The position numbers and the translations under genes are program-made. The notes below the pieces were generated by a model, which made no database searches, had not been told where the DNA came from, and worked only from the letters and a program-made list of their open reading frames with translations. A stretch of DNA of 64,000 nt from an uncultured Armatimonadia bacterium (lineage in GTDB: Bacteria; Armatimonadota; Zipacnadia; Zipacnadales; VGFC01), in contig CAZKUN010000005.1 in NCBI GenBank assembly GCA_964555935.1, forward strand, positions 28,335-92,334, read 5' to 3'. This document shows, piece by piece, positions 25,422-64,000 of the stretch (within the stretch, counting starts at the first letter, position 1; the number at the start of each line of letters is the position of its first letter).

Positions 25422-25432
25422 AAAAGCGCGCG

Positions 25433-40566: not shown

Positions 40567-40618
40567 ACTCGGCGCGATGCCGGGCGCCAGTGTAATTGAG
40601 GAAAGGGCTGAGGGAAGC

Positions 40619-41656: not shown

Positions 41657-41684
41657 CGAGTCGCGCGGCACGAGATCGAATCAC

Positions 41685-41720
41685 AAAGAGCGCCACCCTT
41701 CCGGGGGGCGCTCTTTTCAT
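41685..41720. terminator. bidirectional rho-independent terminator
   Basis: 10-bp stem aaagagcgcc / ggcgctcttt (41685..41694 and 41707..41716). It has a T-run on the plus strand and an A-run (U-run on the minus strand) on the other side. It lies between convergent ORFs. Confidence 0.75.
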
Positions 41721-41740
41721 GTCTGTCCGATACGCGGGCG

Positions 41741-41860
41741 TTACTTCGGCAGCACGGCAACGCCGCTTACCGCCAGCCAACTCAGTGCAATCACCGCGAG
41801 GATGAGCGCATCCTTCCAACTCCAATGCGATCTCTCGACTCGTTGCTGGTGCGTCGCCAT
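41741..41860 (-). CDS. 39-aa single-TM small protein (candidate)
   Basis: The ATG at 41860 is preceded by ggaggt 7-8 nt upstream. It encodes MATHQQRVERSHWSWKDALILAVIALSWLAVSGVAVLPK and ends just before the terminator. Confidence 0.35.
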   Translation of the reverse strand: MATHQQRVERSHWSWKDALILAVIALSWLAVSGVAVLPK

Positions 41861-41987
41861 GTCAGCTACCTCCGTGATGCCTGAACGCTTACAGAGTTCG
41901 TACCACACTTCCCCGGCGCTGCATTGCACATTATGTCCTGGCGTCCGCGGCAGGCGCGGGCACTGACAATGCGGAAACGCTGCTGTC

Positions 41988-45988: not shown

Positions 45989-46194
45989 GTCGCCCTCCCA
46001 GGCTGTGTTTCGGTTCAAGCGCGAGAGTTCGTTGCGCGTGGGCTGCGTGCCTCCTGGGCTGACCGCAAGAACGACGCCGAGTTGGGGACCTCGGACCGCG
46101 CGACGACAACCAAGGGCCGCCGCTTGCATCGTTGCCGAGCGGCCCCTATAATTGGTGGGCCGCCTCCTAATACGATGACAGGTGAGATGCGTCC

Positions 46195-47223
46195 ATGAGC
46201 TACGAACGCGGTTGGGCCGCGATCAACCTTGAGATGCCGGACCAGATCCCGCACACCGAGTACATCAGCCACCGCCGGTTCATCCAGAAAGTCACTGGGA
46301 TCGATCCCGAGGGTGAGGGCGGCGGAGCGTCCGCGCCGGCGTTGGCACGGGCGCTGGACTTCGACCTGATCTGGTCGTGCTACGGGCGCGACTGGGGCAC
46401 GCCTCGCGCCGACATGGGGCGAGCGAAGTTCTACGAGACGGAGACGCCGTGGGAGTCGAACTACGCGCTGAAGACCGTCGAGGATGTGTTGAGCTTCGAT
46501 CCGACCGCATCGGCGAAACTGCCCAGTATGGACGAGCTGACCCAGAGCGTCCGCCAGTCGTATGAGAACGGGCAGAAGACCTACCCGGAGGCGGTGTACC
46601 CCGGAGGGTTCTACAACACCGTCTTCACGTGGCCGATCGTGACCTTCGGCTGGGACCTGTTCATCTTGGCGGCTATGGATGACCCCGAGCGCTTCGACAA
46701 GGTCCTCGAGGGCTTCACTGAGATCAGCATGATGGTCGTCGAGGCGCACGTGAAAGCGGAAGTCCCGGTCTTTCTTTGCCACGACGACATCGTCTGGGCG
46801 TCAGGCACCGTCTTCGCGCCCGAGTGGATGCGCAAGCACGTCTTCCCGCGGCACAAGCGGCTTTGGGCGCCGCTGCTGGAGGCCGGGATCAAGGTGTTGT
46901 TCTGCTCGGACGGAAACTTCGATGAGTACATCGACGACATTGCCGAGGCCGGCGCGGAGGGCTTCATCTTCGAGCCGCTCACAGACCTCGAATACATCGC
47001 CAGGAAGTATGGCCAGACGCACGTGATCGTGGGCAACATCGACTCGCGCATACTTCAGAACGGGACGCCTGAACAGATCCGCGCCGATGTCAAACGGTGC
47101 GCGGACCTGGGGCGCGACTGCCCCGGCTTCTTCTTCGCCGTGGGCAATCACATCCCGTTCGTCGTTCCCATTCCGAGCGTCGAGTGCTACCTCGAAGCCA
47201 TCGACGAGATGGGGCGGCGCTAG
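46195..47223 (+). CDS. uroporphyrinogen-decarboxylase (URO-D)-family protein
   Basis: FLCHDDIVWASG...FCSDGNFDEYIDDIAEAGAEGFIFEP...GNIDSRILQNGTPEQIRADVKRC is typical of URO-D/MtaA-like barrels found outside haem operons. Confidence 0.6.
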   Translation: MSYERGWAAINLEMPDQIPHTEYISHRRFIQKVTGIDPEGEGGGASAPALARALDFDLIWSCYGRDWGTPRADMGRAKFYETETPWESNYALKTVEDVLSFDPTASAKLPSMDELTQSVRQSYENGQKTYPEAVYPGGFYNTVFTWPIVTFGWDLFILAAMDDPERFDKVLEGFTEISMMVVEAHVKAEVPVFLCHDDIVWASGTVFAPEWMRKHVFPRHKRLWAPLLEAGIKVLFCSDGNFDEYIDDIAEAGAEGFIFEPLTDLEYIARKYGQTHVIVGNIDSRILQNGTPEQIRADVKRCADLGRDCPGFFFAVGNHIPFVVPIPSVECYLEAIDEMGRR

Positions 47224-49766: not shown

Positions 49767-50009
49767 TTGGACCACGTAGCCGTCGTGGAGATCGTCACCA
49801 ACAAAGTCGCCCAGCGTCTCAACCGTCGGCCCGAAGAGGTCAAGCCCGAGTGCAGCTTCTACGAGGATCTGCAGGCAGACCCGTTGGAGCTGACGGAGGT
49901 CATCATGGCCCTCCAAGAGGAGTTTGGCATCCGGGCCGAGTGCGAGGTGAGCGACGTCCGGACCGTTGCCGACGCGATCCGCTACGTTGAGACGCGACTT
50001 TACGAATAG
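49767..50009 (+). CDS. acyl-carrier-protein homologue lacking the conserved Ser
   Basis: It aligns by eye with AcpP (SFYEDLQADPLELTEVIMALQEEFGI vs [26 protein letters not shown]). The DSL serine is replaced by Pro (codon CCG). The start codon is TTG. Confidence 0.6.
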   Translation: MDHVAVVEIVTNKVAQRLNRRPEEVKPECSFYEDLQADPLELTEVIMALQEEFGIRAECEVSDVRTVADAIRYVETRLYE

Positions 50010-50064
50010 CCGTCTTCCCCCGGTATCGCCTCAAAACTCCATCCCCCCAACCGGAGCCACCAGC

Positions 50065-51534
50065 ATGAGTCTCCCCTCGTCTCGCCCGCCCAATGTCATC
50101 TCCATCATGGCCGACGATATCGGGATCGGCGACTTCGGATGCTACAACTCCGAGTCGCGCGTCCCGACGCCAAGCATCGACCGGCTTGCGGCGGAAGGCG
50201 TGCGGTTCACGGACGCGCACTCAGCGTCGGCCGTGTGCACGCCGTCTCGATACGGCGTGCTGACGGGCCGGTACTGCTGGCGATCTCAACTCGAGTACAG
50301 CGTCCTGTTTGGGTACGAGCCGCCGCTGATCGAGCCGGCTCGGATTACGGTTGCGAGCCTGCTGAAACAGGCGGGTTACTCGACGGCCTGCATCGGGAAG
50401 TGGCACCTGGGCTTGGGCTACTCCGCAAAGCCCGGCGAGGATGTCGACTTCACCGCGCCGCTGCCGTGGCCGAGCCAGACGGCGCGGGAGTTTGAGGAGA
50501 AGATAGACCTCACGCAACCCGTCACCGGCGGGCCGACCGAACTCGGCTTCGACTACTTCTACGGCACGTCCGGGTGTCCGACATGCCAGCCCCCGTATGG
50601 CTTCATTGAGAACGATCGCTTCGTCATCACCCCGACGGAGTACCGCGAGACGCAACCGTTTGCCGGCCGCTCCGGCTACCACGCGCCCGGCTGGGAGCAC
50701 AGGGACGCCGACCCGAAGATCGCGGCGAAGGCGGTGGAGTGGATTGAGGGGCAGGCGGATTCAGACGAGCCGTTCTTCCTCTACCTCGCGTCGGATGCGG
50801 CGCATGAGCCATGTGTCGAAGAGGTCGTGCCGGAGTTCGCGCGAGGCCAAAGCGACGCCGGCCACCGAGGCGATCTCGTCTGGCTGTATGACTGGATGGT
50901 CGGCGAGGTGATGCATGCGCTCGACCGAACGGGTCAGGCCGACAACACGCTGGTCATGGTCACGAGCGACAACGGCGCGCTTCCCGGCGATCGGTTTGGC
51001 GATGGGGCGGGCGACTTCGCGGGCTACCATACGTATGGGCACAGGTCGTGCGGCGACTGGCGCGGGTACAAAGCACACATCTGGGAGGGCGGGCATCGCG
51101 AGCCGCTCATCGCGCGCTGGCCCGGACAGATCGAGGCGGGCTCAACGTGCGACGAGTTGGTGGCGTTGAATGATCTCATGGCCACGTGCGCGGCGGCCAC
51201 CGATCAGGAGCTGCCTCCCGACGCGGGACCTGACAGCGTCAACATATTGCCAGCGCTGCTCGGCGAGACAACTCACGAGCCGCTGCGCGAGAGCCTCGTC
51301 CACCACTCCGGACAGGGGGTCTTCTCGTTGCGCGCTGGCCGATGGAAGCTCATCCACGAGAGTCTCGGCTCGGGCGGATGGCCGCCACCGACGGGCGAGC
51401 GACCCGTGCCCGGCGGACCGGGCCAACTCTACGATCTGAGCGAGGATCCAGCGGAGGGGACGAACCTCTGGCATGAGCGGCAAGACATCGTGAGGGGGCT
51501 GCGCGCGCACCTGGATGAGTTAAGGGCGCGATGA
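50065..51534 (+). CDS. arylsulfatase (formylglycine-type)
   Basis: PPNVISIMADDIG and the canonical CTPSRYGVLTGRY signature, plus SDNG and GGHREP blocks. The ATG at 50065 is preferred. Confidence 0.85.
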   Translation: MSLPSSRPPNVISIMADDIGIGDFGCYNSESRVPTPSIDRLAAEGVRFTDAHSASAVCTPSRYGVLTGRYCWRSQLEYSVLFGYEPPLIEPARITVASLLKQAGYSTACIGKWHLGLGYSAKPGEDVDFTAPLPWPSQTAREFEEKIDLTQPVTGGPTELGFDYFYGTSGCPTCQPPYGFIENDRFVITPTEYRETQPFAGRSGYHAPGWEHRDADPKIAAKAVEWIEGQADSDEPFFLYLASDAAHEPCVEEVVPEFARGQSDAGHRGDLVWLYDWMVGEVMHALDRTGQADNTLVMVTSDNGALPGDRFGDGAGDFAGYHTYGHRSCGDWRGYKAHIWEGGHREPLIARWPGQIEAGSTCDELVALNDLMATCAAATDQELPPDAGPDSVNILPALLGETTHEPLRESLVHHSGQGVFSLRAGRWKLIHESLGSGGWPPPTGERPVPGGPGQLYDLSEDPAEGTNLWHERQDIVRGLRAHLDELRAR

Positions 51535-51544: not shown

Positions 51545-52498
51545 CTACTGCTCCGGTGAGGGTTCGGGCGGAGTCTCATCTTCCTCGGGTGGCTTCTCGT
51601 CTTCGTCAGGAGTCTCCGGCGCGGGTTCGTCGGTTGTCTCGTCGTCTTTCTTCGGCTTGTTGAAGATGCCGGTGAAGCCGCCCGTGGCCTCCAGACGTTC
51701 GTCCTCGATGTGGATGACGACGGTGGGCGCTTCGCCCGAGTCACCGTTGTCCTGCGTGAACTCGACCGGATCTCCGGTTAGGGTCAGCGTGTCTTCTTCT
51801 TTGAGGTGGACGGCTTTGTCGGCATAGACGGTCTTGTCTTCCTGCACCGCCACCACGTTGCCCTCGGCAACCGCGCGGCCTTCCTCATACCAGCTCGTGA
51901 GCTTCTCGCAAGTCACGACCGTCTTCTTCTCCGCGGCCTCGGCCTTCCTGTCCTTCTCCTCGGTCTCCACCGGCTCGGCGTCGGCGCCTTCCTGGGCGTC
52001 GTCCTTCGTCTTCTGATACACCATCCGGACGTTGCCGGTGACGACAGCCTTTTCCTCATCGAAGTCCGCGGTCAGGAGGTCGCCCGTGACGGTCGTGTCG
52101 GGTTGCTCCATCAGCAGGTTGCCCACGCAACGGGCCGTGTCGTCGCCGGCGTTGTAGACGCACTCGTCGCAGTAGAGTTCTGCGTCCTTGTGGCGGATAT
52201 GCACGTTCCCGTTGAGGTAGTAGAGCCCCTTGTCCTGGTTCTCCGGGTCTTCCGGGTCCGGCTCGCGGCGGGCGTGGTCGGCCCATTCGATGTAGATCGG
52301 CTCGTCGTCTTCCTCATCTTCCGTCGCCGGGGCATCGTCGGCAGCGGGAGCCTCTTCGGTCGCCTTAATATCGGGGGGAGGATCGTCGACGGGCGTATCG
52401 CCATCTTGCGCCGCCGAGATAGCGAGGCAAAGCAAGGCGGCCAGCGCCGCCGCCAGCACCCAAAAACCGAACGTCTTCCGCTGCGCTCTGTCCCCCAT
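51545..52498 (-). CDS. OstA/LptA-like periplasmic protein with acidic low-complexity tails
   Basis: Signal peptide and repeated LptA-style strands (LNGNVHIRHKDAELYCDECVY..., VTGNVRMVYQ, AEGNVVAVQEDKTVYADKAVHL). The N- and C-terminal tails are Asp/Glu/Pro-rich. It starts 2 nt after the LptC-like stop. Confidence 0.55.
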   Translation of the reverse strand: MGDRAQRKTFGFWVLAAALAALLCLAISAAQDGDTPVDDPPPDIKATEEAPAADDAPATEDEEDDEPIYIEWADHARREPDPEDPENQDKGLYYLNGNVHIRHKDAELYCDECVYNAGDDTARCVGNLLMEQPDTTVTGDLLTADFDEEKAVVTGNVRMVYQKTKDDAQEGADAEPVETEEKDRKAEAAEKKTVVTCEKLTSWYEEGRAVAEGNVVAVQEDKTVYADKAVHLKEEDTLTLTGDPVEFTQDNGDSGEAPTVVIHIEDERLEATGGFTGIFNKPKKDDETTDEPAPETPDEDEKPPEEDETPPEPSPEQ

Positions 52499-52500
52499 CG

Positions 52501-53205
52501 CTATCGTCCGGTCCTCTCCTGAGCCTCGGCAACGTCGACCACCATCTGAACGTCATCGAGCGTGAACGCGCCGGTGTCGAGCGGGTACTTCAGGTTCTTG
52601 CCGATGCAATCGCTCCGGCCGGTGTCCATCCGCACTTGGTTTGGCGCGTAGACGGTCTGCGTGTCGGTATCGAACTTCATCCCCGCAGTCGTCACGGTCA
52701 CCCTGTCCTTCGTCCGAAGCACGACGCGCCCTGGCGTCGTCAACATCCGCGACCTGTTGTCCCAATGGATCTTGTCCGTCGTGATGATCGCGCCCTTCGG
52801 CGAAACCACGCGGACGCGCCCCTTCATATCAAAGTCATAAGACACCGTATCGTAGTTGACGTGTTCAGCCGTGACGCGCACGGCGGGCTTTCCGTCCCTG
52901 CCGTAGATGAGCCCTTCCTTCAGGCGGGTCGCGCTGATCGCCTTGCCGCCTGTCTCCACCGCCAGGTTGCTCAACCGCACCTTCCAAGCCGGGCGTCCCC
53001 GCTCGCTATGTTGGAGCGTGAAGTCTTCAATCGCGAGCATCGGCCGAGGCTCGGGGGCGGCGCCAATCTCACCATTGCCGCCGTTGGCGTGGTCACCGTT
53101 GCCATTCGCCGTGGCCGCTTCTCGACGCACGTAGATAGCCGCAAGCACGATTGTGCCCACGAGGATGATGGCAATGATCGTTGCGGCGAGCGCCCTGGTC
53201 GACAT
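52501..53205 (-). CDS. LptC-like membrane-anchored OstA-fold protein
   Basis: Single N-terminal TM (ALAATIIAIILVGTIVLAAIYV), then a beta-jellyroll-like repeat pattern (VRVTAEHVNYD..., GRVRVVSPKGAIITTDKIHWD..., VVLRTKDRVTVTTAGMKFD). Confidence 0.5.
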   Translation of the reverse strand: MSTRALAATIIAIILVGTIVLAAIYVRREAATANGNGDHANGGNGEIGAAPEPRPMLAIEDFTLQHSERGRPAWKVRLSNLAVETGGKAISATRLKEGLIYGRDGKPAVRVTAEHVNYDTVSYDFDMKGRVRVVSPKGAIITTDKIHWDNRSRMLTTPGRVVLRTKDRVTVTTAGMKFDTDTQTVYAPNQVRMDTGRSDCIGKNLKYPLDTGAFTLDDVQMVVDVAEAQERTGR

Positions 53206-53266
53206 GGTGCGTGGTTCTCTTCCCACTTAGACAACGCGCGGAGCGGGCCGCCAGGTCCCCTGCGGC

Positions 53267-53893
53267 CTAGATCGGCGGCGGCGGCGGGCCGAAGGAGAGA
53301 AACAGCGTGCCAATGTTGAGAATCTGACCAGCCGCAACCGTGCCGGGATGCCATGCTGTTGCGCCCGTGGACGGGTCCTGAGCCGTAACCTGGACAGCGC
53401 CGACGTTCACGTTGTAGAGGGTGAACCGGCCCGTGCCGTCACTGCGCGTCTTGGCCGTGCTCCCTCCGCCTCCGACGTTTGCGCCGTCGACCGCCGCGCC
53501 ACTCGCAAGCGCGACCGTTCCGGTGATGTGCCCTCGTCCGCCATTGCGCGTCGGCGGGAGATAGACCGTGCCCGCCTGATTCTGGCCGCCAACGACGTTC
53601 AGCGGCACGTCAACGCGCTCGTGACCCGCCGCGGTGACCGTCAGCGTCTGCGCGCCCTGGCCCACGCCGGTCAGCGTGAACTGGCCCGTCGTCCCCGTCG
53701 TCGTCGTAACGCTGCCCGCCGTGACGGTGGCGCCGGTAACGAGCAGCATGCTTCCGTCATCCAACACCACTCCAAGGATGGTTGTCCCGCCACCACCACC
53801 ACCGCCTCCGCCACCAAGTCCACCGCCGCCCCCACAACCCGTAAGCGTGATGGCCGCGGCAAGCAGCAAGGTGGCTGCAATTCGTGCTCTCAT
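53267..53893 (-). CDS. lipoprotein: poly-Gly linker, two CarboxypepD_reg-like domains, poly-Pro C-terminus
   Basis: The ATG at 53893 gives MRARIAATLLLAAAITLTGC (lipobox). Then come GGGGGLGGGGGGGGGG and beta-sandwich repeats (TGQFTLTGVGQGAQTLTVTA; GRFTLYNVNVGAVQVTA). The protein ends ...LSFGPPPPPI. Confidence 0.65.
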   Translation of the reverse strand: MRARIAATLLLAAAITLTGCGGGGGLGGGGGGGGGGTTILGVVLDDGSMLLVTGATVTAGSVTTTTGTTGQFTLTGVGQGAQTLTVTAAGHERVDVPLNVVGGQNQAGTVYLPPTRNGGRGHITGTVALASGAAVDGANVGGGGSTAKTRSDGTGRFTLYNVNVGAVQVTAQDPSTGATAWHPGTVAAGQILNIGTLFLSFGPPPPPI

Positions 53894-53966
53894 GGTCAAC
53901 CTTCTCTCATTCAGCGCGCCCAAAACGCCGGCGCTATGGTCTGGGAACGTTGTCTCACCCTCGTCT

Positions 53967-54326
53967 TCAGCCGCTCAGCCCATAGTAATACCCGATCCGC
54001 ATGACGGCAGTGGCGGGGACTGGCTTGCGCGTGACGATCCGACCGATCTGCCGGACCGAGTCCATCTCGATCCCCTCGCGCCATTCTGTCCCGTCCACAG
54101 TCACTACGAGCGCCTGCCGGACGATCTGCGTCTGGCCGTCAATAATCGCCGTCGAGCCGTCGGTCAGGATTGGGCTGAAGCGCACGTCGAACGGTCCGGT
54201 CGTGCCGGCGCCGGTGAACACGTCTTCCTGGAAGCGGGCGGTGTCGACAGCCGCGCCCCCTCCCCCGCACCCCAACGCTACGACTGCAAGAGACAGCAAG
54301 ACCACACCCAGCACTAGTAGTCTCAT
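53967..54326 (-). CDS. small lipoprotein, paralogue of an internal segment of the 1191-aa envelope protein
   Basis: The ATG at 54326 follows gaggtgg. It has a lipobox (VVALGC). The mature part (ARFQEDVFTGAGTTGPFDVRFSPILTDG...ATAVMRIGYYY) matches residues of 58610..62185 almost position for position. Confidence 0.65.
   Translation of the reverse strand: MRLLVLGVVLLSLAVVALGCGGGGAAVDTARFQEDVFTGAGTTGPFDVRFSPILTDGSTAIIDGQTQIVRQALVVTVDGTEWREGIEMDSVRQIGRIVTRKPVPATAVMRIGYYYGLSG
53981..54243. repeat. dispersed coding repeat, copy A (~263 bp)
   Basis: Aligns without gaps to 61057..61319. It includes an identical 26-nt run, attgggctgaagcgcacgtcgaacgg. Confidence 0.8.
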
Positions 54327-54360
54327 CTTCGCCCACCTCGCCCTTGCCACGCGCCGGAAC

Positions 54361-55545
54361 TTATGGCGCTGTGATCTGGAAATCCACGCCTGTCAACGCC
54401 CGGCCCGCACCACCGAGTGTCACCGTCTTGGCGATGCTGACCGTCTGGAAGCTGACTTCGATCCGATATTGGCCCGGCGGCACGAAGAGTCCATAGTTCC
54501 CGTCCGCGTCCGTGACTACCTCGTCGGTCGTCTGACCGGTAGCCACGAGAATCGCCTTGACGGTCGCGCCGCTGCTGTCCACTTTGTTCAGGATCGTCAC
54601 CTTGCCACTGATGGTCGCCGGCCCTCCGGGCGGCCCCGCCTGGGTCGGCGCAAGCTCAAACTGCAGTTCCGGAAGCCCCGGCAGGACGGTGATATTTCGA
54701 ACGATCGGATCGTAGCCCGGAGCGCTGACATTGACGATCTGATCGCCCACGGGCACGTCAATCAGCTCAAACGTGCCGTCGGCGCCGCTCTGGACGAGGG
54801 CCTCGGCTCCGACCTCCACGGTCGCGTCCTGAATGGGGGCGCGAGTGATGAGATCTATCACGCGCCCGCGAACCGTGGCCTTACTCGTCGTCGCGACGAG
54901 CTGGTAGTCCTCGACAGTGCCGGCCCCGCTCGAATCCTGGATCGAAAGGAAGCTGCGGGTCGTGCTGAGGAAGCCATCCGCGGAGACGACGGCAATCGTG
55001 TTGCCGGTGGGTGTCCCACCGATCGCGTACTGCCCGTCTTTGTCGGTTGCGCCCTCCACGGCGATCGGCGTTCCGGCGACATCGGGCTTGAGATTCAGGC
55101 GGACGTTGGCAATGCCCGTGCCGTCATCAGCGTTCGTAACCGTCCCAGTGACGCTACCCGTCAGATCGAGATCCGCCGCGTCAAGCTCGACCTCCACATC
55201 GGTCGGGCCGCTGACGTTCAGCGTGAGCTGCAGGAGGCGCGTGACGAACCCGCGGGCCGTGACAGTGAGCGGCTGGACAGGCTGGTTGGGCGATGTGAAG
55301 TCACCAAAGGGCACGTCCGGAATCGTGATCGTCTGCTCGCCGGCAGCGATGGTCGCCCGCTCGCCACCGACAATGACGATGACCTCGACCCCGGTGGCCG
55401 CGAGCGTGTCGGCGCTGACGACGGTAACCACCACCGTGCCTGTCGACGATGATCCCGTGCCCGGCGCGGTGACGCGGATCGAACTCGCGCTGCAGCCGAC
55501 GAGCACGGCCGTGGCCAGGGACGCTACGACCCAGATTGCCCTCAT
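54361..55545 (-). CDS. lipoprotein built from ~4 CarboxypepD_reg-like beta-sandwich repeats
   Basis: The ATG at 55545 follows gaggagcgg. It has a lipobox (AVLVGC). Repeats: VTGTVTNADDGTGIANVRLNL, VRGRVIDLITRAPIQDATVEV, ISGKVTILNK... Confidence 0.65.
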   Translation of the reverse strand: MRAIWVVASLATAVLVGCSASSIRVTAPGTGSSSTGTVVVTVVSADTLAATGVEVIVIVGGERATIAAGEQTITIPDVPFGDFTSPNQPVQPLTVTARGFVTRLLQLTLNVSGPTDVEVELDAADLDLTGSVTGTVTNADDGTGIANVRLNLKPDVAGTPIAVEGATDKDGQYAIGGTPTGNTIAVVSADGFLSTTRSFLSIQDSSGAGTVEDYQLVATTSKATVRGRVIDLITRAPIQDATVEVGAEALVQSGADGTFELIDVPVGDQIVNVSAPGYDPIVRNITVLPGLPELQFELAPTQAGPPGGPATISGKVTILNKVDSSGATVKAILVATGQTTDEVVTDADGNYGLFVPPGQYRIEVSFQTVSIAKTVTLGGAGRALTGVDFQITAP

Positions 55546-55569
55546 ACTTCCGCTCCTCACCAGTGGCTC

Positions 55570-58500
55570 CTATCGCGCAACCGAGATCCTACCGACCGCG
55601 CGACTGACTTGACCATCGTCTGACCGAGCGGTGAGATCGATGATGTACGTCCCGCTCGGCACGAGCGCGCCGGTGGCGCTTCTGAGGTCCCACATGAGAG
55701 ACGATCGCCCGGCCGATTGCACGCGCTCCTGCACGATGTCGCGGACGGGTCGGCCCGCGATGTTGAGCACCCGCGCCGTCACGGCCGCGTCGGCCGATAG
55801 CGAATAGGTGATCTCCGCGCCCTGGTGAGTCTGCAGTCCGAGGACGCCGATCACAGCGAGCGCTCCCTGGTTCGCGGGCCTCAGTTCGATCTCAAACTCG
55901 CGCGGCACGTCCGATCCTGTGAACTCATACGCTGACGTCGTCCGCATCGACAACTCCCGTCCGGTCTGGAGATCCTTGAGCACGGGCCTGAGGTCCGCCG
56001 GCACGCCCGTCAGATCCGGCCAGCGCAGGCTGGCTCGGTCGCCAGGGCGGACCCCTCGAGCGCGAAGCCTCCACGGGCCTCGCGCCGCCTTGCCGCGTAT
56101 GTCGGTGGCGTAATCGCCGGAATCGCGATCCCAGTCGGCGTTGACGAAGCCGAGACTCGGTTGGTCGCCGAAGCCCGGCGGCGCCTGCAAGTCGTAGCGC
56201 GAGTCGTACCCAGCCTTCGCCCCGCCCGCCGTGCCGAGAATCGCCTGACCCCGCCGGTCGCCGCACTCCATCATGACCAAGGCCTGCCACTCCGTGCCCG
56301 CAAGCGCGGAGTAGGGCTGCCTCGTGGCGCCGGCGGTGTCCGCTCCCGTGATCGTCGTGCTCGGAGCCGGGAACACCAGCAGAGCGCCGTCAGCCAACAG
56401 GCAGCGCACCCAGTACCCCTCGAACGGGTCGAACTGCGAGGCCAGGCCGTAGCCGGCCAGTTGGTTGTATCCCCACACGCCCGACTGCACCCAGCCGGCC
56501 GCGGCCGCATCCGCGAAGGTCTTCGTGTCCGCCGCCCCACGCTGAATCAGAACGTCGTCGATATCGACCACCCGGTTCCGCCCGGTGCCGACCATGTTCC
56601 AGCCCGCATACATCTGCGTCCGCACGTCCCGAGAGGCGTTGGCCTCAAGCCCGTCCACGGCCACCGTAACATCCTGCAGCACCCGGAGCCAGAAGCCGCG
56701 CCCCGGCCTGAAGAGATCGATGGTCGGGTAGATCTGATACTGCCCGCCGCCCGGCGCGTTCGGCTTCCAGCGCGCGAGGAGAAGCTGGTCGGCGGGAATC
56801 CCCAATGCCGACGCGTGGTCGTCGATGACCGGCGTGACGGGCAGAGACATCAGGTACAGCCCGTTCGCGCCGAGGGGGAAGTTCTTCGCGACGCCCACGC
56901 GCGATTCAGCTGTCAGGAGGACGTCGTAAGTGTCGAACGCCACGTTCACCTGTCGAGTGACGACGTTGTTCTGCGCGTCCGTGAAGGTTATCTGGAGTTT
57001 AGCCGGCGACATCGCCGTCGTGCTGATGCTGGCGCCCCACACCCCCCGCTCGACCTTCACATCCGTCAGTCCACCGAGGCCCGCCACATCGATCGTGCCG
57101 TCGCTGGGGCCGATGATCGCGCCGTAGAGATTGTTGTCGCCCGGATCGAACCCACGCACGCCGTACGGGAAGGGGTACTGGGCAAACAGCCCGTTCACAT
57201 CCATCTGAACCGTGATCCGCTGCGGCCCGCCAACGTTGAAGAACGTCGGGATGAGAAAGCCCTCACCCGCCGCCGCCCCCGTCGCGGGGATCGTGATCTC
57301 GTTGCCTTCCTGGGCGAAGAGCGTCAGCGTGAAGTCGTGGTTGAAGTACGAGGTCCGCGCCGTCCCGCCTCTCGGCAACTCGTCGCCGTTGGTCGTCGTA
57401 TCGTAATGCTCAACGATCAGGGCGACCGCATCGAAGAGAGGGATGTTCCACGTGTAGAGTTTGGGGCCAACCGAGGTGCTCGTGTCGAGCGCGTATTGCT
57501 GCCGATACCAGCCGAAGAATGACTGTCCTTCCATCGACGGGAGGACACCTTGGCAGATCTCAAGCAGGCTCGGCGTGTCGCCGCGAAGCGCATCTTGCTC
57601 CGGGGCGCTGAGCCCGTTGAGCAAGGCGTAATATTGAGTGTTGAAGCGGCGGAAGAACTGGGAGTCTTCGGTGTAGCACTTGAACCACGCCGCGCGCGCC
57701 TGCGCGATTCTCCACACCAGCATTCCCGAGAAGCCCGAGTCCGGGAACCACGTGCTGTTCCCGAGACCGGGTTGGTTCATTGCGTCATATACGGAGCCGC
57801 TGTAGAAGGGTCCGGGGTTGGCCGGATCGTAACCAGGCGACACGCCCGGCGAGATCTGCACGGCGGTCGCCGCGGAACCGATGAATCCGTGCTCCCAGCT
57901 GTCGAAGAACAGTCCCACGTCATCGTGGAACGCGTTGAGCACGAGCAGCATGAGCACGAAGGTGTCTTCGGGGAAGTTGCCGCTCATCGGCGGCAGGCGC
58001 AGCTCGTTGGTGGTCATGTCGTACGTGCCGCCCTGCAGCTCGCTGAGCGTGTCGTCCCTGATGACCTTGACGGTGATGTCAAACGCCGGTGGGCCGTAGA
58101 TGACCCGTGCGATCGGCATGGCGTCCTGCAGGTAGTTCGCCAGGTCGGCTTCGTCGGCGGCCGACCAGCCGTCGAAATCGAAGGTGATGTTGTTCGCCGC
58201 GTCGCCGATCGCCGTGCCCGTATCGCGGGCGCGGGCGAGGTCGGGCAGGATCAGCGAGGTGCCCTGCAGATGCACCACCGTGCGCGGAACGCGGACCTTC
58301 GCGTCACGGGTCTTGATCCCGTTCCGTCGCATGAACTCCATCGCCACGGAGGCCTGGCTGAGGCCCTGCTCGGAGTGTTGCGAGTCGGTCGCTGTCTGCA
58401 CCACGCGAGCGGCGCTCGATCGATCGGTCGTCCACATCCGGCCGCGATGCTGAACAACAATCGCGCCCTGGGGCCCGTTGCTTGTGGCTGCGTGCGGCGT

Positions 58501-58608
58501 GTTGCGGAGGTTGGTGAAGGGGTTCTGACCCGCATGAGCCACGCCGCAGGCGACGAGTGCCCCGATTACGCACAGGATGGATAACGCGGTCTTCGCCTGT
58601 GAGCGCAT
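55570..58608 (-). CDS. 1013-aa secreted protein, unknown N-terminal region, shared C-terminal module and FlgD-Ig/T9SS-CTD-like end
   Basis: The ATG at 58608 lies 1 nt after the upstream stop (MRSQAKTALSILCVIGALVACGVAHA signal). The C-terminal third matches the M6 and S8 proteins (GRGFWLRV..., DLRPVLKDLQTGRELSMRTTSAYEF, VTARVLNIAGRPVRDI...SGTYIIDL). The listed 1210-aa form reads the upstream gene's repeat in another frame. Confidence 0.7.
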   Translation of the reverse strand: MRSQAKTALSILCVIGALVACGVAHAGQNPFTNLRNTPHAATSNGPQGAIVVQHRGRMWTTDRSSAARVVQTATDSQHSEQGLSQASVAMEFMRRNGIKTRDAKVRVPRTVVHLQGTSLILPDLARARDTGTAIGDAANNITFDFDGWSAADEADLANYLQDAMPIARVIYGPPAFDITVKVIRDDTLSELQGGTYDMTTNELRLPPMSGNFPEDTFVLMLLVLNAFHDDVGLFFDSWEHGFIGSAATAVQISPGVSPGYDPANPGPFYSGSVYDAMNQPGLGNSTWFPDSGFSGMLVWRIAQARAAWFKCYTEDSQFFRRFNTQYYALLNGLSAPEQDALRGDTPSLLEICQGVLPSMEGQSFFGWYRQQYALDTSTSVGPKLYTWNIPLFDAVALIVEHYDTTTNGDELPRGGTARTSYFNHDFTLTLFAQEGNEITIPATGAAAGEGFLIPTFFNVGGPQRITVQMDVNGLFAQYPFPYGVRGFDPGDNNLYGAIIGPSDGTIDVAGLGGLTDVKVERGVWGASISTTAMSPAKLQITFTDAQNNVVTRQVNVAFDTYDVLLTAESRVGVAKNFPLGANGLYLMSLPVTPVIDDHASALGIPADQLLLARWKPNAPGGGQYQIYPTIDLFRPGRGFWLRVLQDVTVAVDGLEANASRDVRTQMYAGWNMVGTGRNRVVDIDDVLIQRGAADTKTFADAAAAGWVQSGVWGYNQLAGYGLASQFDPFEGYWVRCLLADGALLVFPAPSTTITGADTAGATRQPYSALAGTEWQALVMMECGDRRGQAILGTAGGAKAGYDSRYDLQAPPGFGDQPSLGFVNADWDRDSGDYATDIRGKAARGPWRLRARGVRPGDRASLRWPDLTGVPADLRPVLKDLQTGRELSMRTTSAYEFTGSDVPREFEIELRPANQGALAVIGVLGLQTHQGAEITYSLSADAAVTARVLNIAGRPVRDIVQERVQSAGRSSLMWDLRSATGALVPSGTYIIDLTARSDDGQVSRAVGRISVAR

Positions 58609-58609
58609 C

Positions 58610-61600
58610 TTAGATATCCCGCATGTCGTCGATCGGAAAAGCATCGGTCCCTCCCACCTCGCTCCACGGATCCCCAAGTGTCGGCTGCGAAACCACTGTC
58701 CGTTGCGGACGTCCCATCTGCGGCGCGCCGGGATCCTGTCCGAGCGGCCCGGACGTGCCCCAACCATCCGCGTAGCCAGGACCATACGTTCCCGGCTGGC
58801 CCTGATCGAAGCCCTCGAGTCCGGTGAACTCGCCGCTGCCCCGGCTGCCCGAGTATGGGTTGTAATTGCCACCATAGTTGCCGCCACCATAGTTGCCGCC
58901 ACCATAGTTGCCGCCACCATAGTTACCGCCACCATAGTTGCCGCCACCGTAGCTGCCGCCACCATAGCTGCCGCCGCCATAGCTGCCGCCGCCATAGCTG
59001 CCGCCGCCGTAGCTGCCGCCGCCGAAGCCCGACGATCCCCCGCCGGACCGGCCAAACTGCCCGTAGCCGCCGTAGGAATTGGTATACCCGCCTCCCATCG
59101 ACCCGCCCCTGGACCCACCGTACATCCCGCCCTGGCCGCCCAACATCTGGAAGCTCTGATTGCGGTTGCCGAGCGAGGAGAGTCCACCAGTGAATCCGCC
59201 ACCGAAACCGCCGCCCCCGCCGCCGCCGCCGAAGATGCCGCCGCCAGGCCTGATCGACTGGTTCATGTTGCCGGCGTCACGACGACGATCGCCGCTGACC
59301 GATCCCTGGAAATTCGTGGAGAGAGACAGCATGAGGAGATTGGTCGTGTAGTCCTGGCCCGCAGCGGTGACGCCCGGGATCGTCGTATCGCTCTGCGGGA
59401 GTCGCGAGTCATTGCGGATGAGTTGCCACCCGAAGTTCAGCCCCATGCTGGGGGTCAGCTCGTAGTTCAGGGCGATCTCAGCCGTCTGCTTGGCGAAGTC
59501 CGAGTAGCCGCTCACGAAGTCACTGAACCCCACGCGCCCGGTGATCCGCGACCGATCGTTCAACTCGTACTGAACGTCGGTCACGACATCGAGCAGGCTC
59601 GTGTCCGTCAGCGTGGCGATCTCGTTCTCGCCCGTTCCAGCGAAGTCCGGACTCACGCCCCACTGCTTGTTGACGTTGAAGCGGTAACTCAACGCGCTCT
59701 TCTCGGGGCGGTAGCTGGCGCCAAGACTGAAGCTGTTGTTGAGCACTCCGCCGCGGTCCTCGTCGAGGAACTGCAGCAGGTCCGAACCGACCGATGCGTT
59801 CAGCGACCACTCCCTAGTAGGCAGCCAGCTCAGACCGATGTTCCCGTAGCGCTGGTCGCTGTCGGCAAGATACCCCACGGAGCCGGCGCTCTCGTACTTG
59901 CGCATGCCCAAACTCGCATCGACGTTGATCTTGTCGCTCGGTTGCCACGACAGTCCAAGCCGGGAGGTCGAGTCGGTGTACCGGCTGAGTTCGGGCTCGT
60001 CCTCATCCGGCAACGGATCGCCGCCGCCGATCTGCAGCGGCATGAGCGTGCCGGAAAGGCCGAACGGAACCCCGCCGATGTTCCCGCCGTAACCGCCGCC
60101 CAGACCCGAGGAGTACCCGCCGAACCCGATTCCGCCGCCATAGAAGCCACTCGTCACGGCGCCGATCGCCTCGGTCCGCGACCAGTCGAGGTTGAGGTCG
60201 AGGTTGTCCATCACGCGCCAACGCGTGCTGACCTGAAGATTCTCAGAGTCGCCGCGCTGCGCCTGGAAGTTGCTGGCCGAGTTGTTCTGGCTGTAGTTTG
60301 TGGCGAATGACAGCGAGTCGCTCGGCGTCCACGAGGCCGCCATCGTGAGCGTCTTGGTGCTGCTGGACTGAGCCGATCCCAACGGATCCGTGTCGTCGGC
60401 GTCCGCAAAGCCTGCGTAGTTCTGCTGCGTGTCCATCACGCCGATGCGGAAGGTGTATGGCTTCTTGGCTGGCGCGTAGTCGAGATTGATGTTCATCGTC
60501 TCGAGCAAACTGTTGGCCTGACTCCCGCCGGTGTTTTCCATCGTCTGGCGGGAGAGGCTGAGATTCGGCCAGCCCGGATAGTTCAACATTAGCATCGAGT
60601 CGTTGCGCGTGGCTCGAACACCCAGCGTTGGCGTCGTTGCGGGGTCTTGGTAGGCCCGGTCCAGGCTGGTATCAGCCCCAAAGCCCGTTCCGCCCGTGTA
60701 GCCGCTATAGCCATACGCGTAGCCCGAGTCGGTCTTGACGTCGGAGAAGCGGTGGGTGAAGGAGATCTTGTCGGATGGTCGATACCCGAACGCGGCCGTC
60801 AGGCCTTTCTCGTTCCGGAAGAACCCGACCGTGTCAATGTAGCTGTAGGTGGGGTCGACGTCACGATACTGCAAGTCTATGTCGAACTTGCGCCCGCGCC
60901 GATAACGCGCGCCCGTGCTCAGCGCCACGCCAGTCTCGCCGCCACTTTCGCTCTGAGCCGCCGTGAGGTCCCATTGGAGATCATCATCCAATCGGTGCCT
61001 GAGAGTAAGCCCCGTCACCGTGGTATCCCCAAGCGAGCTGCCGCTCGGCCCAACCTGATAGTAGTACCGAACGCGCACGACGGCCGTGGCGGGGACTGGT
61101 CTGCGCGTGATGATCCGGCCGATCTGCCGGATCGAGTCCATCTCGATGCCCTCGCGCCACTCTGTCTCGTCGACCAGGAACACGAGCGCCTGCCGGATGA
61201 TCTGCTCTTGGCCGTCAATGGTCGCCGTCGCGCCGTCGGCCAGAATTGGGCTGAAGCGCACGTCGAACGGACCCGTCGTACCTGATCCGGTGAACAGGTC
61301 TTCCTGGAAGCGCGCCGTGCTGTTGCTGCCCCCCGCGCTCGTCGCGTGCTCGAGTCGCGTGACGGACAGTTGCAGGTCGTCGTGCAGCAGCGCGCTCTCA
61401 AGCTGCCAACCGGAGGTGGTGCCGCCGGTCTCGTAGTTGGTCGCCGACTGGTAGCTGACTGACACCACGCTCGTGCTGGGAATGATCGTCGGCGGCTGGC
61501 CGGGCGGCTCGAACCAGAGCTGCCCCGTGTCGTAGTCGAGGGTGTAGTCCTCGCCAAAGCGCATGGGCCGCTCGTCGATCTTCACGAGTTCGGAGCCATC

Positions 61601-62185
61601 GACAACCGGCGTGAACGTCAGGAAGTACGGACCAGAGGTGTTGTTGCCGGGGAACGTCTGGCGCCGGACGAGGCCCTTCTCCTGCGACGTGAAAGCCCGG
61701 AAGAGCATGTTGTCGTTGATGCGGTGATCGAGTTGCAGCCCCTCGAGGCTCTTCGAGTATGACGCGAACTGGTTCCCGCCGATGTTGACATTCAGGTCGC
61801 CCCAAAGCAGCGCCGTGTTCTTGCTTTGGTAGCCAACGACGAACTGGTTGTTGTTGAAGCCATACCCGCTGTTGGCAATGTGGGCGCGCAAACCGAAGTT
61901 GCCGTAGATAGGTCCCACGATGTCGAAGCTCGTGGTCGCCTGCATCGGCGACGTGTTCCAAAACTGCGACTGATACGCTTCCTCGGAGCCGGCGGTGAAG
62001 TTCTGCCGGAGGGAAAACTCGCCTCGGCCAGAGATCTGAAGTCCGTCGAAGAGATCGCCCGTCGCGTCGTCCGCCTTATCGAACCATCGCGAAACAGCGT
62101 CGAACAGATCCGCGTTGGCCAGCGGGCCTATGGCAAGCCCGCCGATGACCAAACCCAATCTCAGTGCGGCGCCCCATGCACGCAA
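58610..62185 (-). CDS. 1191-aa putative outer-membrane beta-barrel-type protein with Gly/Tyr-rich C-terminal tail
   Basis: Signal peptide (LGLVIGGLAIGPLANA). Long stretches show alternating aromatic/polar beta-strand patterns (ALNYELTPSMGLNFGWQL, LGLSWQPSDKINVDASLGM, ...). An inserted soluble-looking domain is present (ARFQEDLFTGSG...RVRYYY). The final ~170 aa are G/Y/S/N low complexity. Confidence 0.55.
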   Translation of the reverse strand: MRAWGAALRLGLVIGGLAIGPLANADLFDAVSRWFDKADDATGDLFDGLQISGRGEFSLRQNFTAGSEEAYQSQFWNTSPMQATTSFDIVGPIYGNFGLRAHIANSGYGFNNNQFVVGYQSKNTALLWGDLNVNIGGNQFASYSKSLEGLQLDHRINDNMLFRAFTSQEKGLVRRQTFPGNNTSGPYFLTFTPVVDGSELVKIDERPMRFGEDYTLDYDTGQLWFEPPGQPPTIIPSTSVVSVSYQSATNYETGGTTSGWQLESALLHDDLQLSVTRLEHATSAGGSNSTARFQEDLFTGSGTTGPFDVRFSPILADGATATIDGQEQIIRQALVFLVDETEWREGIEMDSIRQIGRIITRRPVPATAVVRVRYYYQVGPSGSSLGDTTVTGLTLRHRLDDDLQWDLTAAQSESGGETGVALSTGARYRRGRKFDIDLQYRDVDPTYSYIDTVGFFRNEKGLTAAFGYRPSDKISFTHRFSDVKTDSGYAYGYSGYTGGTGFGADTSLDRAYQDPATTPTLGVRATRNDSMLMLNYPGWPNLSLSRQTMENTGGSQANSLLETMNINLDYAPAKKPYTFRIGVMDTQQNYAGFADADDTDPLGSAQSSSTKTLTMAASWTPSDSLSFATNYSQNNSASNFQAQRGDSENLQVSTRWRVMDNLDLNLDWSRTEAIGAVTSGFYGGGIGFGGYSSGLGGGYGGNIGGVPFGLSGTLMPLQIGGGDPLPDEDEPELSRYTDSTSRLGLSWQPSDKINVDASLGMRKYESAGSVGYLADSDQRYGNIGLSWLPTREWSLNASVGSDLLQFLDEDRGGVLNNSFSLGASYRPEKSALSYRFNVNKQWGVSPDFAGTGENEIATLTDTSLLDVVTDVQYELNDRSRITGRVGFSDFVSGYSDFAKQTAEIALNYELTPSMGLNFGWQLIRNDSRLPQSDTTIPGVTAAGQDYTTNLLMLSLSTNFQGSVSGDRRRDAGNMNQSIRPGGGIFGGGGGGGGFGGGFTGGLSSLGNRNQSFQMLGGQGGMYGGSRGGSMGGGYTNSYGGYGQFGRSGGGSSGFGGGSYGGGSYGGGSYGGGSYGGGSYGGGNYGGGNYGGGNYGGGNYGGGNYGGNYNPYSGSRGSGEFTGLEGFDQGQPGTYGPGYADGWGTSGPLGQDPGAPQMGRPQRTVVSQPTLGDPWSEVGGTDAFPIDDMRDI
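58868..59017. repeat. 10 x 15-bp tandem repeat (gccaccatagttgcc / gccgccatagctgcc)
   Basis: Read directly, with exact 15-nt period. Five units have agtt and five have agct. On the minus strand they encode (SYGGG)x5 then (NYGGG)x5. Confidence 0.9.
61057..61319. repeat. dispersed coding repeat, copy B (~263 bp)
   Basis: Counterpart of 53981..54243, inside the 1191-aa gene. Confidence 0.8.
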
Positions 62186-62306
62186 GCTAGTGCCCTCCGC
62201 ATTCGGTGATCTGCCGTTCGACGATTGACGGGCCCCGGGTGGTAGATGCTTCCCCTGGCTGGGGACGCGGTGTTTCGACTCTCGCTGAGTGGGATTTGTT
62301 CCGGGG

Positions 62307-63383
62307 TCAGAGGCCGAATCTGGTAATCAGTTCCTCGACCATGTCGAGGTTCCTCTCGGCGGCGGCCCTCAGGCGGTCGGCCCGCGTCTCGAGCGAGTCC
62401 CCGCTTGCGTCTCGATCCGCCCAGGCGTCCGATATGACCTGGACCACTTCGTCCTCCGACGCGCTCCGGTCCAGCCACGTCGCGTCGACGCTCTCCGCGA
62501 ACGCGGCGACCTTTGGATCGTACGACAGGGCCACGAAATCCACGCCCTGCGCGGCGGCGAAGATCGCCGAGTGCAGGCGCATCGCCACGACCAGGTCGAG
62601 GCTTCTGACAAGGCCGATCCACCGTTGGGGAGACAGTTCGTCATCCGCCCCGACGACGCGTCCGCCCGCCTCGGCGGCAACGCGCTCGGCAATCCTCGCA
62701 TCGACCGGCCGGTGCAGGGCCAACGGGACAATGCTCGCCTCGGCGGACAACTCGCCCGCCGCCCGAAGCGCTCCGTCGACCAACGCCTCGCATCCGCTCA
62801 CGTCACGAAGCGCCAGGCCTAGCCGCGGACCCTCGCTCGCGGGCGGGAGCAGATGAGCCACATCTTCGGGAGGAGACGGTTCGGCCAAAGGCGCCGGGTC
62901 AGCGGCGACGAGCACGCGCTCGCGGTCCACGCCAAGGCTGACCAGCAAGTCCGCCGATGCCTCGTCACGGACGGTGATGGCGGCCGCCTTGCGCGCGGCG
63001 CGTCCGGTGAACAGTCTCGCGAGGGAGCCCGTGAGCGGTCCGATGCCCTGGGCGTAGAAGGCGTATGGCGTTCGCCGCCACGTGGCCGCTTCGAGGATTG
63101 CCAGGTAATAGGCCGCCGACTTGGCGCTGGTCGCGTCCTGCAGCAACCCTCCCCCGCCCTGGAGCACGAGGTCAGCCCAGCCGATTGCTCGCCAGACAGC
63201 CGCCTTGTCCCAGCGGTCCTCGGCTTGGACGCCATGCCCGCCGCGGGTGGCGGCGGGGTCGTTCGACAAGACCGCCAACTCGCAGTCCGGGACACGCCGC
63301 CGAAGGCCATCAAGCGTTCCCGCCAGAATCGCCTCGTCGCCCGCGTTGCCGAAACCGTAGTAGCCTGAGATCAGTATCCGCAT
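62307..63383 (-). CDS. csaB: polysaccharide pyruvyl transferase CsaB
   Basis: The ATG at 63383 gives MRILISGYYGFGNAGDEAILAG, the hallmark CsaB N-terminus. The remainder is collinear with pyruvyl transferases. The listed 401-aa start overlaps the upstream gene. Confidence 0.8.
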   Translation of the reverse strand: MRILISGYYGFGNAGDEAILAGTLDGLRRRVPDCELAVLSNDPAATRGGHGVQAEDRWDKAAVWRAIGWADLVLQGGGGLLQDATSAKSAAYYLAILEAATWRRTPYAFYAQGIGPLTGSLARLFTGRAARKAAAITVRDEASADLLVSLGVDRERVLVAADPAPLAEPSPPEDVAHLLPPASEGPRLGLALRDVSGCEALVDGALRAAGELSAEASIVPLALHRPVDARIAERVAAEAGGRVVGADDELSPQRWIGLVRSLDLVVAMRLHSAIFAAAQGVDFVALSYDPKVAAFAESVDATWLDRSASEDEVVQVISDAWADRDASGDSLETRADRLRAAAERNLDMVEELITRFGL

Positions 63384-63399
63384 GAGATCGCCGCGCCGT

Positions 63400-64000
63400 C
63401 TACTCCCCGCCATCCCGCGGCGACCCAGACGCGAGCCTCCGCCAGCAGGTCTCGCCGATCTCGCAGATCGCGTAGAGCACGACGCCAAGGGCGGCGCCGA
63501 GCCACAGGCCATGGAGCGCGCGCGATAGCGAGATCTCGACGGGGGTGTGGAGGTGGCTGAACGTGTTCACGAGCGACACGAGCCCGACCGTGCCAACCGA
63601 CAGGATGATCCATCGCCCGGCCTGTTTCCCAGCCAACATGCGCGCCAGCCCAAGAACCAGGAACGGGTATCCGATGAGGACTTCCTTCGTCCTCGGCCGC
63701 ACGCCAAATGCCCGGTCCATCAACGCGCGAAACTTCAGCTCAACCACCGACACGCCCAGTCCGCTGTCGTTGCCGCTTCGCATGATGAGGACGGCCATGC
63801 CGGCAACGCCGATGAGCAGCGCCGCAACGTGCCAGTACCGCACCACGCCCTCGGCCGCCTTGCGCCAGCCACGCATCAGGACGCGCCACCGAGATTCGTC
63901 GTCGCCCGCTCCGTCGGCGCCGAGGTCCCACCCCATCAGAATCAGCAAGACGGCCACGAGCGGCACGAACTGTGAGGGCTTCACGCCGCGGAACTGGTCG
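63400..64000 (-). CDS. polytopic membrane protein, C-terminal part only (of the kind often found upstream of csaB)
   Basis: The frame remains open to the window edge (...DQFRGVKPSQFVPL...). It has 5-6 hydrophobic helices and its stop is 16 nt before the csaB start. The family assignment (DUF5693-like) comes from memory of csaB neighbourhoods only. Confidence 0.45.
   Translation of the reverse strand, partial: DQFRGVKPSQFVPLVAVLLILMGWDLGADGAGDDESRWRVLMRGWRKAAEGVVRYWHVAALLIGVAGMAVLIMRSGNDSGLGVSVVELKFRALMDRAFGVRPRTKEVLIGYPFLVLGLARMLAGKQAGRWIILSVGTVGLVSLVNTFSHLHTPVEISLSRALHGLWLGAALGVVLYAICEIGETCWRRLASGSPRDGGE

Follow-up and report, generated by a model that had tools for sequence, protein, structure and literature searches.

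A nine-gene envelope run in an uncultured armatimonadian

We analysed a 64,000-nucleotide (nt) stretch of DNA, called the window from here on, from an uncultured Armatimonadia bacterium of the Zipacnadales lineage (contig CAZKUN010000005.1 of assembly GCA_964555935.1, positions 28,335 to 92,334 of the forward strand). Its G+C content is 65%, and the homologs of its proteins bear the names Armatimonadota, Armatimonadia, Candidatus Zipacnadales and candidate division WS1. Our subject is a run of nine co-directional open reading frames (ORFs) on the minus strand at 51545-64000, which an initial annotation had proposed as one export or attachment machine built around an outer-membrane barrel. All nine ORFs were found in place, each with the features that had been listed for it. 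The gaps between them are small (1-121 nt), and the 121-nt gap precedes the barrel gene. A single nucleotide separates the stop codon of the barrel gene (58610-58612) from the ATG of the next gene, which encodes what we call the partner protein (58608), as the annotation had also noted. In the order of transcription, the features of the run are as follows.

63400-64000, minus strand: DUF5693 polytopic membrane protein, C-terminal 199 amino acids (aa), cut by the window end (Pfam PF18949, E 1.4e-55)
62307-63383, minus strand: CsaB polysaccharide pyruvyl transferase, 358 aa (TIGR03609, 254.4 bits; PF04230, E 9.5e-39)
58610-62185, minus strand: giant outer-membrane beta-barrel, 1191 aa (AlphaFold2 model; no Pfam family)
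58868-59020, minus strand: tandem repeat of 15 nt x 10.2 coding for (GGS/NYG)n of the barrel tail (Tandem Repeats Finder)
55570-58608, minus strand: partner protein, 1012 aa (FlgD_ig at aa 930-997; AlphaFold2 model)
54361-55560, minus strand: lipoprotein, 399 aa, with four CarboxypepD_reg/transthyretin-like repeats (PF13620, E 3.5e-30)
53967-54350, minus strand: lipoprotein, 127 aa, a stand-alone copy of insert domain B of the barrel (65% identity)
53267-53923, minus strand: poly-Gly/poly-Pro lipoprotein, 208-218 aa (PF13620, E 6.6e-15)
52501-53226, minus strand: LptC homolog, 241 aa (TIGR04409, PF06835)
51545-52498, minus strand: LptA/OstA-family protein, 317 aa, the last gene of the run (PF13100, PF03968)

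A convergent sulfatase gene, instead of lptB, lies 3' of the LptA-like gene. Scanning the larger window ORFs against Pfam gave no LptD, no lptB/F/G and no genes of the type IX secretion system (T9SS). Scans for promoters and terminators gave signals that were not above shuffled expectation.

The cluster core is conserved across Armatimonadota

We assembled 72 loci from a scan of species-representative genomes and compared gene order among them, limiting each count to the loci with enough DNA. Synteny in relatives, on which the initial proposal depended, was present across this set. The partner follows the barrel at 53 of 55 loci, and the CarboxypepD_reg lipoprotein follows the partner at 39 of 41. 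Barrel, partner and four-repeat CarboxypepD_reg lipoprotein are thus the invariant core. LptC and LptA lie downstream of this core at 21-23 of 33 loci, LptC orthologs keep the same position in 22 or more loci, and LptA is the final gene of the run in every context that we read. The nine genes therefore hold together as one module only in part: the core stands, the LptC/LptA pair follows it at about two thirds of the loci, and CsaB and DUF5693 are adjacent in few lineages.

Chance is a poor explanation for the arrangement: dozens of loci keep the gene order although protein identity among them is just 28-60%. Thermosaccharophagus and Fimbriimonas, the most deeply branching clades sampled, have barrels that are 28-30% identical to ours. 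The cluster is an envelope operon confined to the phylum Armatimonadota and conserved by vertical descent, and the described systems gave no match to it.

Two genes further along tie the window to its closest relative (locus L079). A 439-aa protein that matches no family (44903-46222, minus strand) and a URO-D-like gene (46186-47223, plus strand) also lie just downstream of the cluster there (L079 21471-23564). In the window, unlike in L079, a sulfatase and a glycogen phosphorylase gene are inserted between lptA and these two.

A predicted giant barrel of a new family

The initial annotation took the 1191-aa protein to be a barrel rather than a soluble protein, and its AlphaFold2 model and the amphipathicity of its strands bear this out. 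The model (aa 1-950, 47 homologs) has a predicted local distance difference test score (pLDDT) of 77 and a predicted template modelling score (pTM) of 0.70, and consists almost entirely of long antiparallel strands. Of 35 strands, 24 are amphipathic, with hydrophobicity alternating from face to face. We put the strand count at about 34-36, an estimate taken from the DSSP string without coordinates. A signal peptide and a 17-residue helix precede the first strand. Two small beta domains are inserted between barrel strands, at aa ~180-250 (domain A) and ~288-380 (domain B); the two are homologous (hhalign probability 96%), and nowhere is the protein better conserved. The final strand closes with ..LSTNF, which resembles a beta-signal and has an invariant F959.

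Beyond that strand, every ortholog carries a Gly/Ser/Tyr-rich tail of 130-260 aa, followed at its very end by a clade-specific Trp/acidic peptide (RRWWQWYD or GLSRWDL..GEWW in other clades, PIDDMRDI/V in this one). The window tail is 230 aa long and ends in PIDDMRDI. Its Gly/Tyr character, pointed out in the initial annotation, is real and is partly coded by the 15-nt repeat, which is present in about 10 copies with 94% matches and a score of 229. This tail (58613-59305, minus strand) could serve as a tether or docking peptide.

The barrel homologs form 63 clusters, and all organism-named matches among them are from Armatimonadota. A search of the barrel profile against PDB sequences gave no matches. 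A Pfam scan of 37 family members at E<=1 brought up generic outer-membrane barrel families alone, all weakly, and there was a weak match to EpsL. Foldseek with the barrel model returned generic giant-barrel matches at template modelling scores (TM-scores) of 0.2-0.32. The highest was to Deinococcus SlpA (0.32), with SprA at TMq 0.31 and further matches to MtrB and TonB-dependent receptors; the best E-values were for full-length LptD (E 2e-8), where a TM-score of ~0.2 marks the resemblance as generic. The barrel contains no SLH (PF00395), OmpA-C, plug (PF07715), TonB box, TonB_dep_Rec or POTRA element. Neither SprA signatures (SprA_N, TIGR04189) nor Por/Gld genes were found with Pfam and NCBIfam in the barrel or its neighbours. 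We rejected OmpM/SlpA, TonB-dependent receptors, Omp85 and SprA as identities for the barrel because the defining domains are absent and the TM-scores are merely generic. The barrel is a new family and is none of these, nor is it LptD, which is taken up below. The initial statement that no named system fits holds for the barrel and partner, which match neither a named family nor a named system.

The partner behaves as a subunit and shares a C-terminal module with exported enzymes

Partner homologs (n=154, 41-66% identity) range from 740 to 1010 aa around a core of ~740 aa, and their conservation exceeds that of the barrel. The initial annotation had called this protein a cargo. It occurs 1:1 with the barrel, is translationally coupled to it and is better conserved, and it therefore behaves as a conserved subunit; the part of the cargo idea that stood is that its C-terminal module is common to cargo-like enzymes. 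We also considered whether the partner is a lipoprotein, since the window protein has the sequence LVAC. We rejected this because the Cys is not conserved and the AxA site of the signal peptide, which is of SPase-I type, is kept. The partner is a new, Sec-exported protein family, and no LptE family was matched in Pfam or NCBIfam.

In its AlphaFold2 model (pLDDT 87), beta-sandwich domains come after an N-terminal alpha/beta domain. This N-domain (aa ~30-370) is gluzincin-like, with a Foldseek match to aminopeptidase N at probability 1.0 over 387 columns; the other Foldseek matches were to Ig arrays. HExxH is missing from the N-domain, and in its place there is an invariant FHDD...WExG (WEHG) region. 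The predicted aminopeptidase N-like fold suggested an active gluzincin peptidase, against which the missing HExxH counts.

The C-terminus had been described as a T9SS-like sorting domain, a description that did not stand up. By family threshold it is FlgD_ig (PF13860, 29.6 bits against a cutoff of 27) and not the T9SS type-A sorting domain. FlgD_ig was found in 32 of 40 partner orthologs, and PF18962 in only two of the 40, at E ~0.23. The partner profile gave FlgD-type matches among PDB sequences to the C-terminus only. Since FlgD_ig closes a module of 430 aa, what had been called a C-terminal domain is the end of a larger, three-domain element (aa 582-1012). This module is 28-30% identical to the C-terminal 430 aa of two window peptidases of the M6 and S8 families (E 2e-31 and 9e-44). 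The three copies in the window are:

55573-56883, minus strand: module of the partner
35724-37037, plus strand: module of the M6 peptidase
39244-40563, plus strand: module of the S8 peptidase

The peptidase genes stand in a co-directional run at 33453-43949 (plus strand) that encodes an M6 (InhA-like) peptidase, an S8 subtilase, a CarboxypepD_reg protein and a polytopic membrane protein with DUF6785+DUF6784; both peptidases of this run (33453-40566) carry the ~430-aa module of the partner at their C-termini. A DUF6785/DUF6784 membrane protein also lies right after a fused LptC-LptA gene in Thermosaccharophagus (L068 20778-22769; L069 ~20990-22009; L071 ~21127-22704), and this adjacency links the family to the barrel cluster.

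Profile searches at E<=1e-30 found 888 representative proteins with the module at their very C-terminus, and 9214 at E<=1e-3. The 888 are 430-4856 aa long with diverse N-terminal parts (S8, M6, PD40, Big-like, CarboxypepD_reg arrays), and the two that are organism-named are both from Armatimonadota. The module has the look of a sorting or anchoring element that has not been described.

These observations bear on the idea that the cluster encodes an exporter or anchor analogous, not homologous, to the T9SS. Proteins with the 430-aa module at their end would pass through the barrel or dock on it, and the partner, with its own copy of the module and its peptidase-like N-domain, would be a resident processing or anchoring subunit, like PorU/PorZ in the T9SS. 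The sharing of the module between the partner and the M6 and S8 peptidases speaks for it, as does the presence of that module at the end of so many otherwise diverse proteins, with both named ones from this phylum. So do the size class of the barrel, which matches that of SprA, and the DUF6785/DUF6784 protein, which both closes the M6-S8-CarboxypepD_reg run and follows the Thermosaccharophagus barrel cluster. However, genes for a motor or for energy coupling are missing from the cluster, no SprA family signature was matched in the barrel, and no role in protein export is known for LptC/LptA. About a quarter of partner orthologs end after ~740 aa and so do not have the last two module domains, FlgD_ig included, and among related loci the module is found in the partner gene only. 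On balance, we consider an exporter of this kind unlikely.

Three lipoproteins

The lipoprotein that follows the partner had been described as having four CarboxypepD_reg repeats. PF13620 accounts for three stretches of it and a fourth, transthyretin-like repeat lies at aa 315-373; its lipobox, L-x-G-C-G-G, is conserved in orthologs. The next, of 127 aa, was said to be copied from the insert of the barrel protein, and it is indeed 65% identical to barrel aa 290-376 (E 6e-50). Outside the window, a gene of its own for this copy occurs only in L005/L079. The third has poly-Gly after its lipobox, then CarboxypepD_reg domains and a C-terminal PPPPPI, and its lipobox is conserved in 17 orthologs.

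LptC and LptA are linked to the barrel, and fused in deep branches

The LptC homolog scores 44.9 bits with TIGR04409 (equivalog cutoff 38) and 35.1 bits with PF06835 (cutoff 21). Its N-terminal membrane anchor contains the hydrophobic stretch ALAATIIAIILVGTIVLAAIYV, and the OstA-fold follows. The LptA-like protein starts with a signal peptide, and its tails at both termini are acidic. It is above the Pfam cutoffs for both PF13100 OstA_2 (42.3 bits) and PF03968 LptD_N (33.6 bits), and at 34.8 bits it is below the TIGR03002 equivalog cutoff of 71.7.

The initial annotation had stressed that this pair is not followed by lptB/F/G, which holds in all seven contexts that we read (the window and six related loci). 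It had gone on to suggest that the OstA-fold pair serves a substrate other than lipopolysaccharide (LPS), and we found no support for this. LptC passes its equivalog cutoff, and neither the window nor 1.25 Mb of related loci contains a further OstA-fold ORF. The two are most simply the housekeeping LptC and LptA of this lineage. Outgroup sequences weakly matched by the LptA profile stand in the canonical order kdsD-lptC-lptA-lptB-rpoN.

Two places where lptB/F/G might have been hidden were rejected. One was just past the ends of the run, where we found the sulfatase downstream and, upstream in the closest relative, prfB, a 5'-nucleotidase gene, uppS, frr, pyrH, tsf and rpsB. The other was locus L080 (4411-8196), where three tandem, paralog-sized genes of ~400 aa follow the LptA gene. 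As LptF/G candidates they had no Pfam family and only weak STN matches.

In deep branches (Thermosaccharophagus L068-71, L072, Fimbriimonas L075), a fused LptC-LptA protein of 460-520 aa is encoded directly after the barrel cluster. The fusions lie at these positions:

L068 18965-20527: LptC-LptA fusion
L069 18830-20374: LptC-LptA fusion
L071 18946-20505: LptC-LptA fusion
L072 6068-7456: LptC-LptA fusion
L075 17191-18621: LptC-LptA fusion

CsaB, DUF5693 and the housekeeping neighbourhood

CsaB scores 254.4 bits with TIGR03609, against an equivalog cutoff of 213.1. The exact 358-aa product, with the same start as in public gene calls, is on record only in 3-kb contigs. The DUF5693 fragment covers positions 437-608 of the 609 in the PF18949 profile, and the full-length ortholog in L079 has 664 aa. 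Apart from the window, CsaB is found immediately before the barrel only in loci L004-L006 and in Fimbriimonadales (L073-L075); the gene before CsaB is DUF5693 in the window, L005/L079, L006 and Fimbriimonadales L073 and L075. Diderm Terrabacteria, Armatimonadetes among them, are known to pyruvylate a wall polymer through CsaB for SLH/OmpM tethering (bioRxiv 10.1101/2021.05.31.446380; PMC9388160). CsaB and DUF5693 are probably neighbouring envelope housekeeping genes that pyruvylate the wall polymer for such tethering, and so stand outside the machine. We found no literature on DUF5693, DUF6785 or DUF6784.

In the closest relative, the DUF5693-CsaB-barrel genes are preceded by rpsB-tsf-pyrH-frr-...-uppS-...-prfB, together with the 5'-nucleotidase gene (L079 96-6823). 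This conserved neighbourhood precedes bamA and the lpx genes in Proteobacteria, where bamA, skp and lpx genes cluster. This raises the possibility that there is no single machine here, and that an outer-membrane complex with another role (uptake of large solutes, a structural or surface-layer element, or a connector from the outer membrane to the wall via the Gly-rich tail) sits beside housekeeping lptC-lptA and csaB in an envelope super-operon. Besides these neighbours, the rarity of the CsaB linkage favours it, and LptC/LptA are missing within 10 kb in 9-10 of 33 loci. The barrel also has its best TM-score to SlpA of Deinococcus, a 30-strand connector barrel, and a Gly/Ser/Tyr tail of periplasm length with a conserved terminal peptide. 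However, the LptC/LptA linkage reaches the deepest branches sampled, where the two are fused, the SLH, OmpA-C, plug and TonB-box domains are absent from the barrel, and Armatimonadetes already possess OmpM-type tethers (bioRxiv 10.1101/2021.05.31.446380; PMC9388160). We regard a super-operon without a joint function as somewhat unlikely.

A candidate outer-membrane end of the Lpt bridge

The barrel, partner, lipoprotein, LptC and LptA genes stay together over a long range, to the point where LptC and LptA become one protein, which speaks for a functional link of the Lpt bridge with the outer-membrane complex. Core LPS synthesis genes are reported in Armatimonadetes (PMC5007114), and "atypical diderms" keep lptA/B/C/F/G, whereas lptD and lptE were reported to be undetectable there (PMC8871954). 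On these grounds we favour the reading that the cluster encodes a non-canonical outer-membrane acceptor for the Lpt bridge. We give it a probability of roughly 40%, and infer it from gene linkage and predicted folds. Further points in its favour are the scores of LptC and LptA above family cutoffs, the lack of a second OstA-fold ORF in the DNA examined, the separation of the pair from lptB/F/G, the confident barrel model with its best, though generic, Foldseek E-values to LptD, and the housekeeping neighbours in L079.

In such a machine, LptC would be anchored in the inner membrane, presumably docking on an LptB/F/G transporter encoded elsewhere, and LptA would form the periplasmic OstA-fold bridge. 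The glycolipid (LPS) would be passed to the giant barrel, itself without an LptD-type jellyroll. The partner could be the plug or cap, doing the work of LptE without being its homolog, and the lipoproteins might be periplasmic struts.

Several results weigh against an Lpt acceptor. No OstA jellyroll (PF03968) was matched in the barrel with Pfam or NCBIfam, and PF04453 (the LptD barrel) was found in none of 37 barrel-family members at E<=1. With LptA and LptC profiles, barrel aa 43-182 and 43-285 gave hhalign probabilities below 1%; the LptA-versus-LptC control gave 90%. It follows that the barrel is not an LptD homolog and that LptA has no obvious docking edge; a divergent LptD was rejected as homology, though not as functional analogy. 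The loci without LptC/LptA count on this side too, and the cluster itself contains neither LPS synthesis genes nor lptB/F/G. The sharing of the partner's module with many exported enzymes points to protein display over lipid transport. Finally, diderm Firmicutes (Acetonema longum) have a small LptD with a jellyroll and a 16-strand barrel (PMC13018214), so a divergent conventional LptD could lie elsewhere in these genomes.

A further reading is a joint trans-envelope machine, previously unrecognised. The LptC-LptA bridge and the ~36-strand barrel would export module-ended proteins and fix them to a surface glycolipid, with the partner as processing subunit and the DUF6785/DUF6784 protein as inner-membrane component. 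Such a machine would amount to a new kind of secretion and attachment system, in which the delivery of glycolipid and the display of proteins are coupled. We think this very unlikely.

To our knowledge, canonical LptD/LptE, the Lol pathway and the T9SS are missing or unrecognisable in many diderm Terrabacteria phyla. How these bacteria complete LPS transport and how they move large enzymes across the outer membrane are open questions, and the cluster is a concrete, phylum-wide candidate: its barrel belongs to the largest size class known, its partner is obligatory, and its linkage to LptC/LptA persists to gene fusion. Either outcome would add a new outer-membrane machine. Two protein families would be newly defined as well, and so would a widespread C-terminal module that hundreds of exported proteins carry.

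Other features of the window

Elsewhere, the window encodes a glycoside hydrolase family 5 (GH5) cellulase with a carbohydrate-binding module, a heparinase/alginate-lyase-like protein and two sulfatases (1740-4370, 8152-11034, 28545-29948, 49966-51534). The cellulase, lyase-like and sulfatase genes suggest a sulfated-polysaccharide-degrading lifestyle. An XPB/RAD25-type helicase gene adjoins one for a protein with Helicase_C_3 and WYL, and a C-5 cytosine DNA methylase gene is nearby (21076-25454 and 31814-33067, both minus strand). G+C content shifts around 26-30 kb of the window, and this helicase/methylase region may be defence-related or mobile.

Comparison with known systems

The Escherichia coli arrangement of LptD/LptE with an LptC-LptA bridge resembles the cluster in that a large barrel is encoded with a co-made partner and genuine LptC and LptA family proteins. 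The parts differ. Our barrel has ~34-36 strands, against 26 or 16 in LptD, without an OstA jellyroll or PF04453 signal, and lptB/F/G are not adjacent. LptE is an outer-membrane lipoprotein of ~190 aa, whereas the partner has 740-1010 aa and is not a lipoprotein.

The T9SS (the 36-strand barrel SprA/Sov with PorV, PorU and PorZ) also has a giant single-chain barrel of similar size class. In both cases, an Ig-like C-terminal domain is common to many exported enzymes and is found on a resident component, here the partner, which has a peptidase-like domain as well. However, there are no SprA, PorV or PorK-N matches here, the phylum is another, and LptC/LptA are in the operon. The T9SS sorting domain is ~80 aa (TIGR04183/PF18962), whereas ours is a 430-aa module of three domains ending in FlgD_ig (PF13860).

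With the SlpA/OmpM connectors, which join the outer membrane to peptidoglycan in diderm Terrabacteria, the cluster shares a very large barrel in a Terrabacteria phylum, a csaB gene adjacent in some lineages and a long extension of periplasm length. SLH domain and coiled coil are both lacking here; the disordered extension, rich in Gly/Ser/Tyr, lies at the C-terminus, and the partner gene is obligatory.

SusC/SusD of Bacteroidota likewise pairs a barrel gene with a following gene for an exported partner, and CarboxypepD_reg domains are associated with both systems. In the cluster, the plug and TonB-dependent receptor domains are absent and CarboxypepD_reg is carried by separate lipoproteins. 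Unlike SusC/SusD, which belongs to polysaccharide-utilisation loci, the armatimonadian cluster occupies a single-copy housekeeping context.

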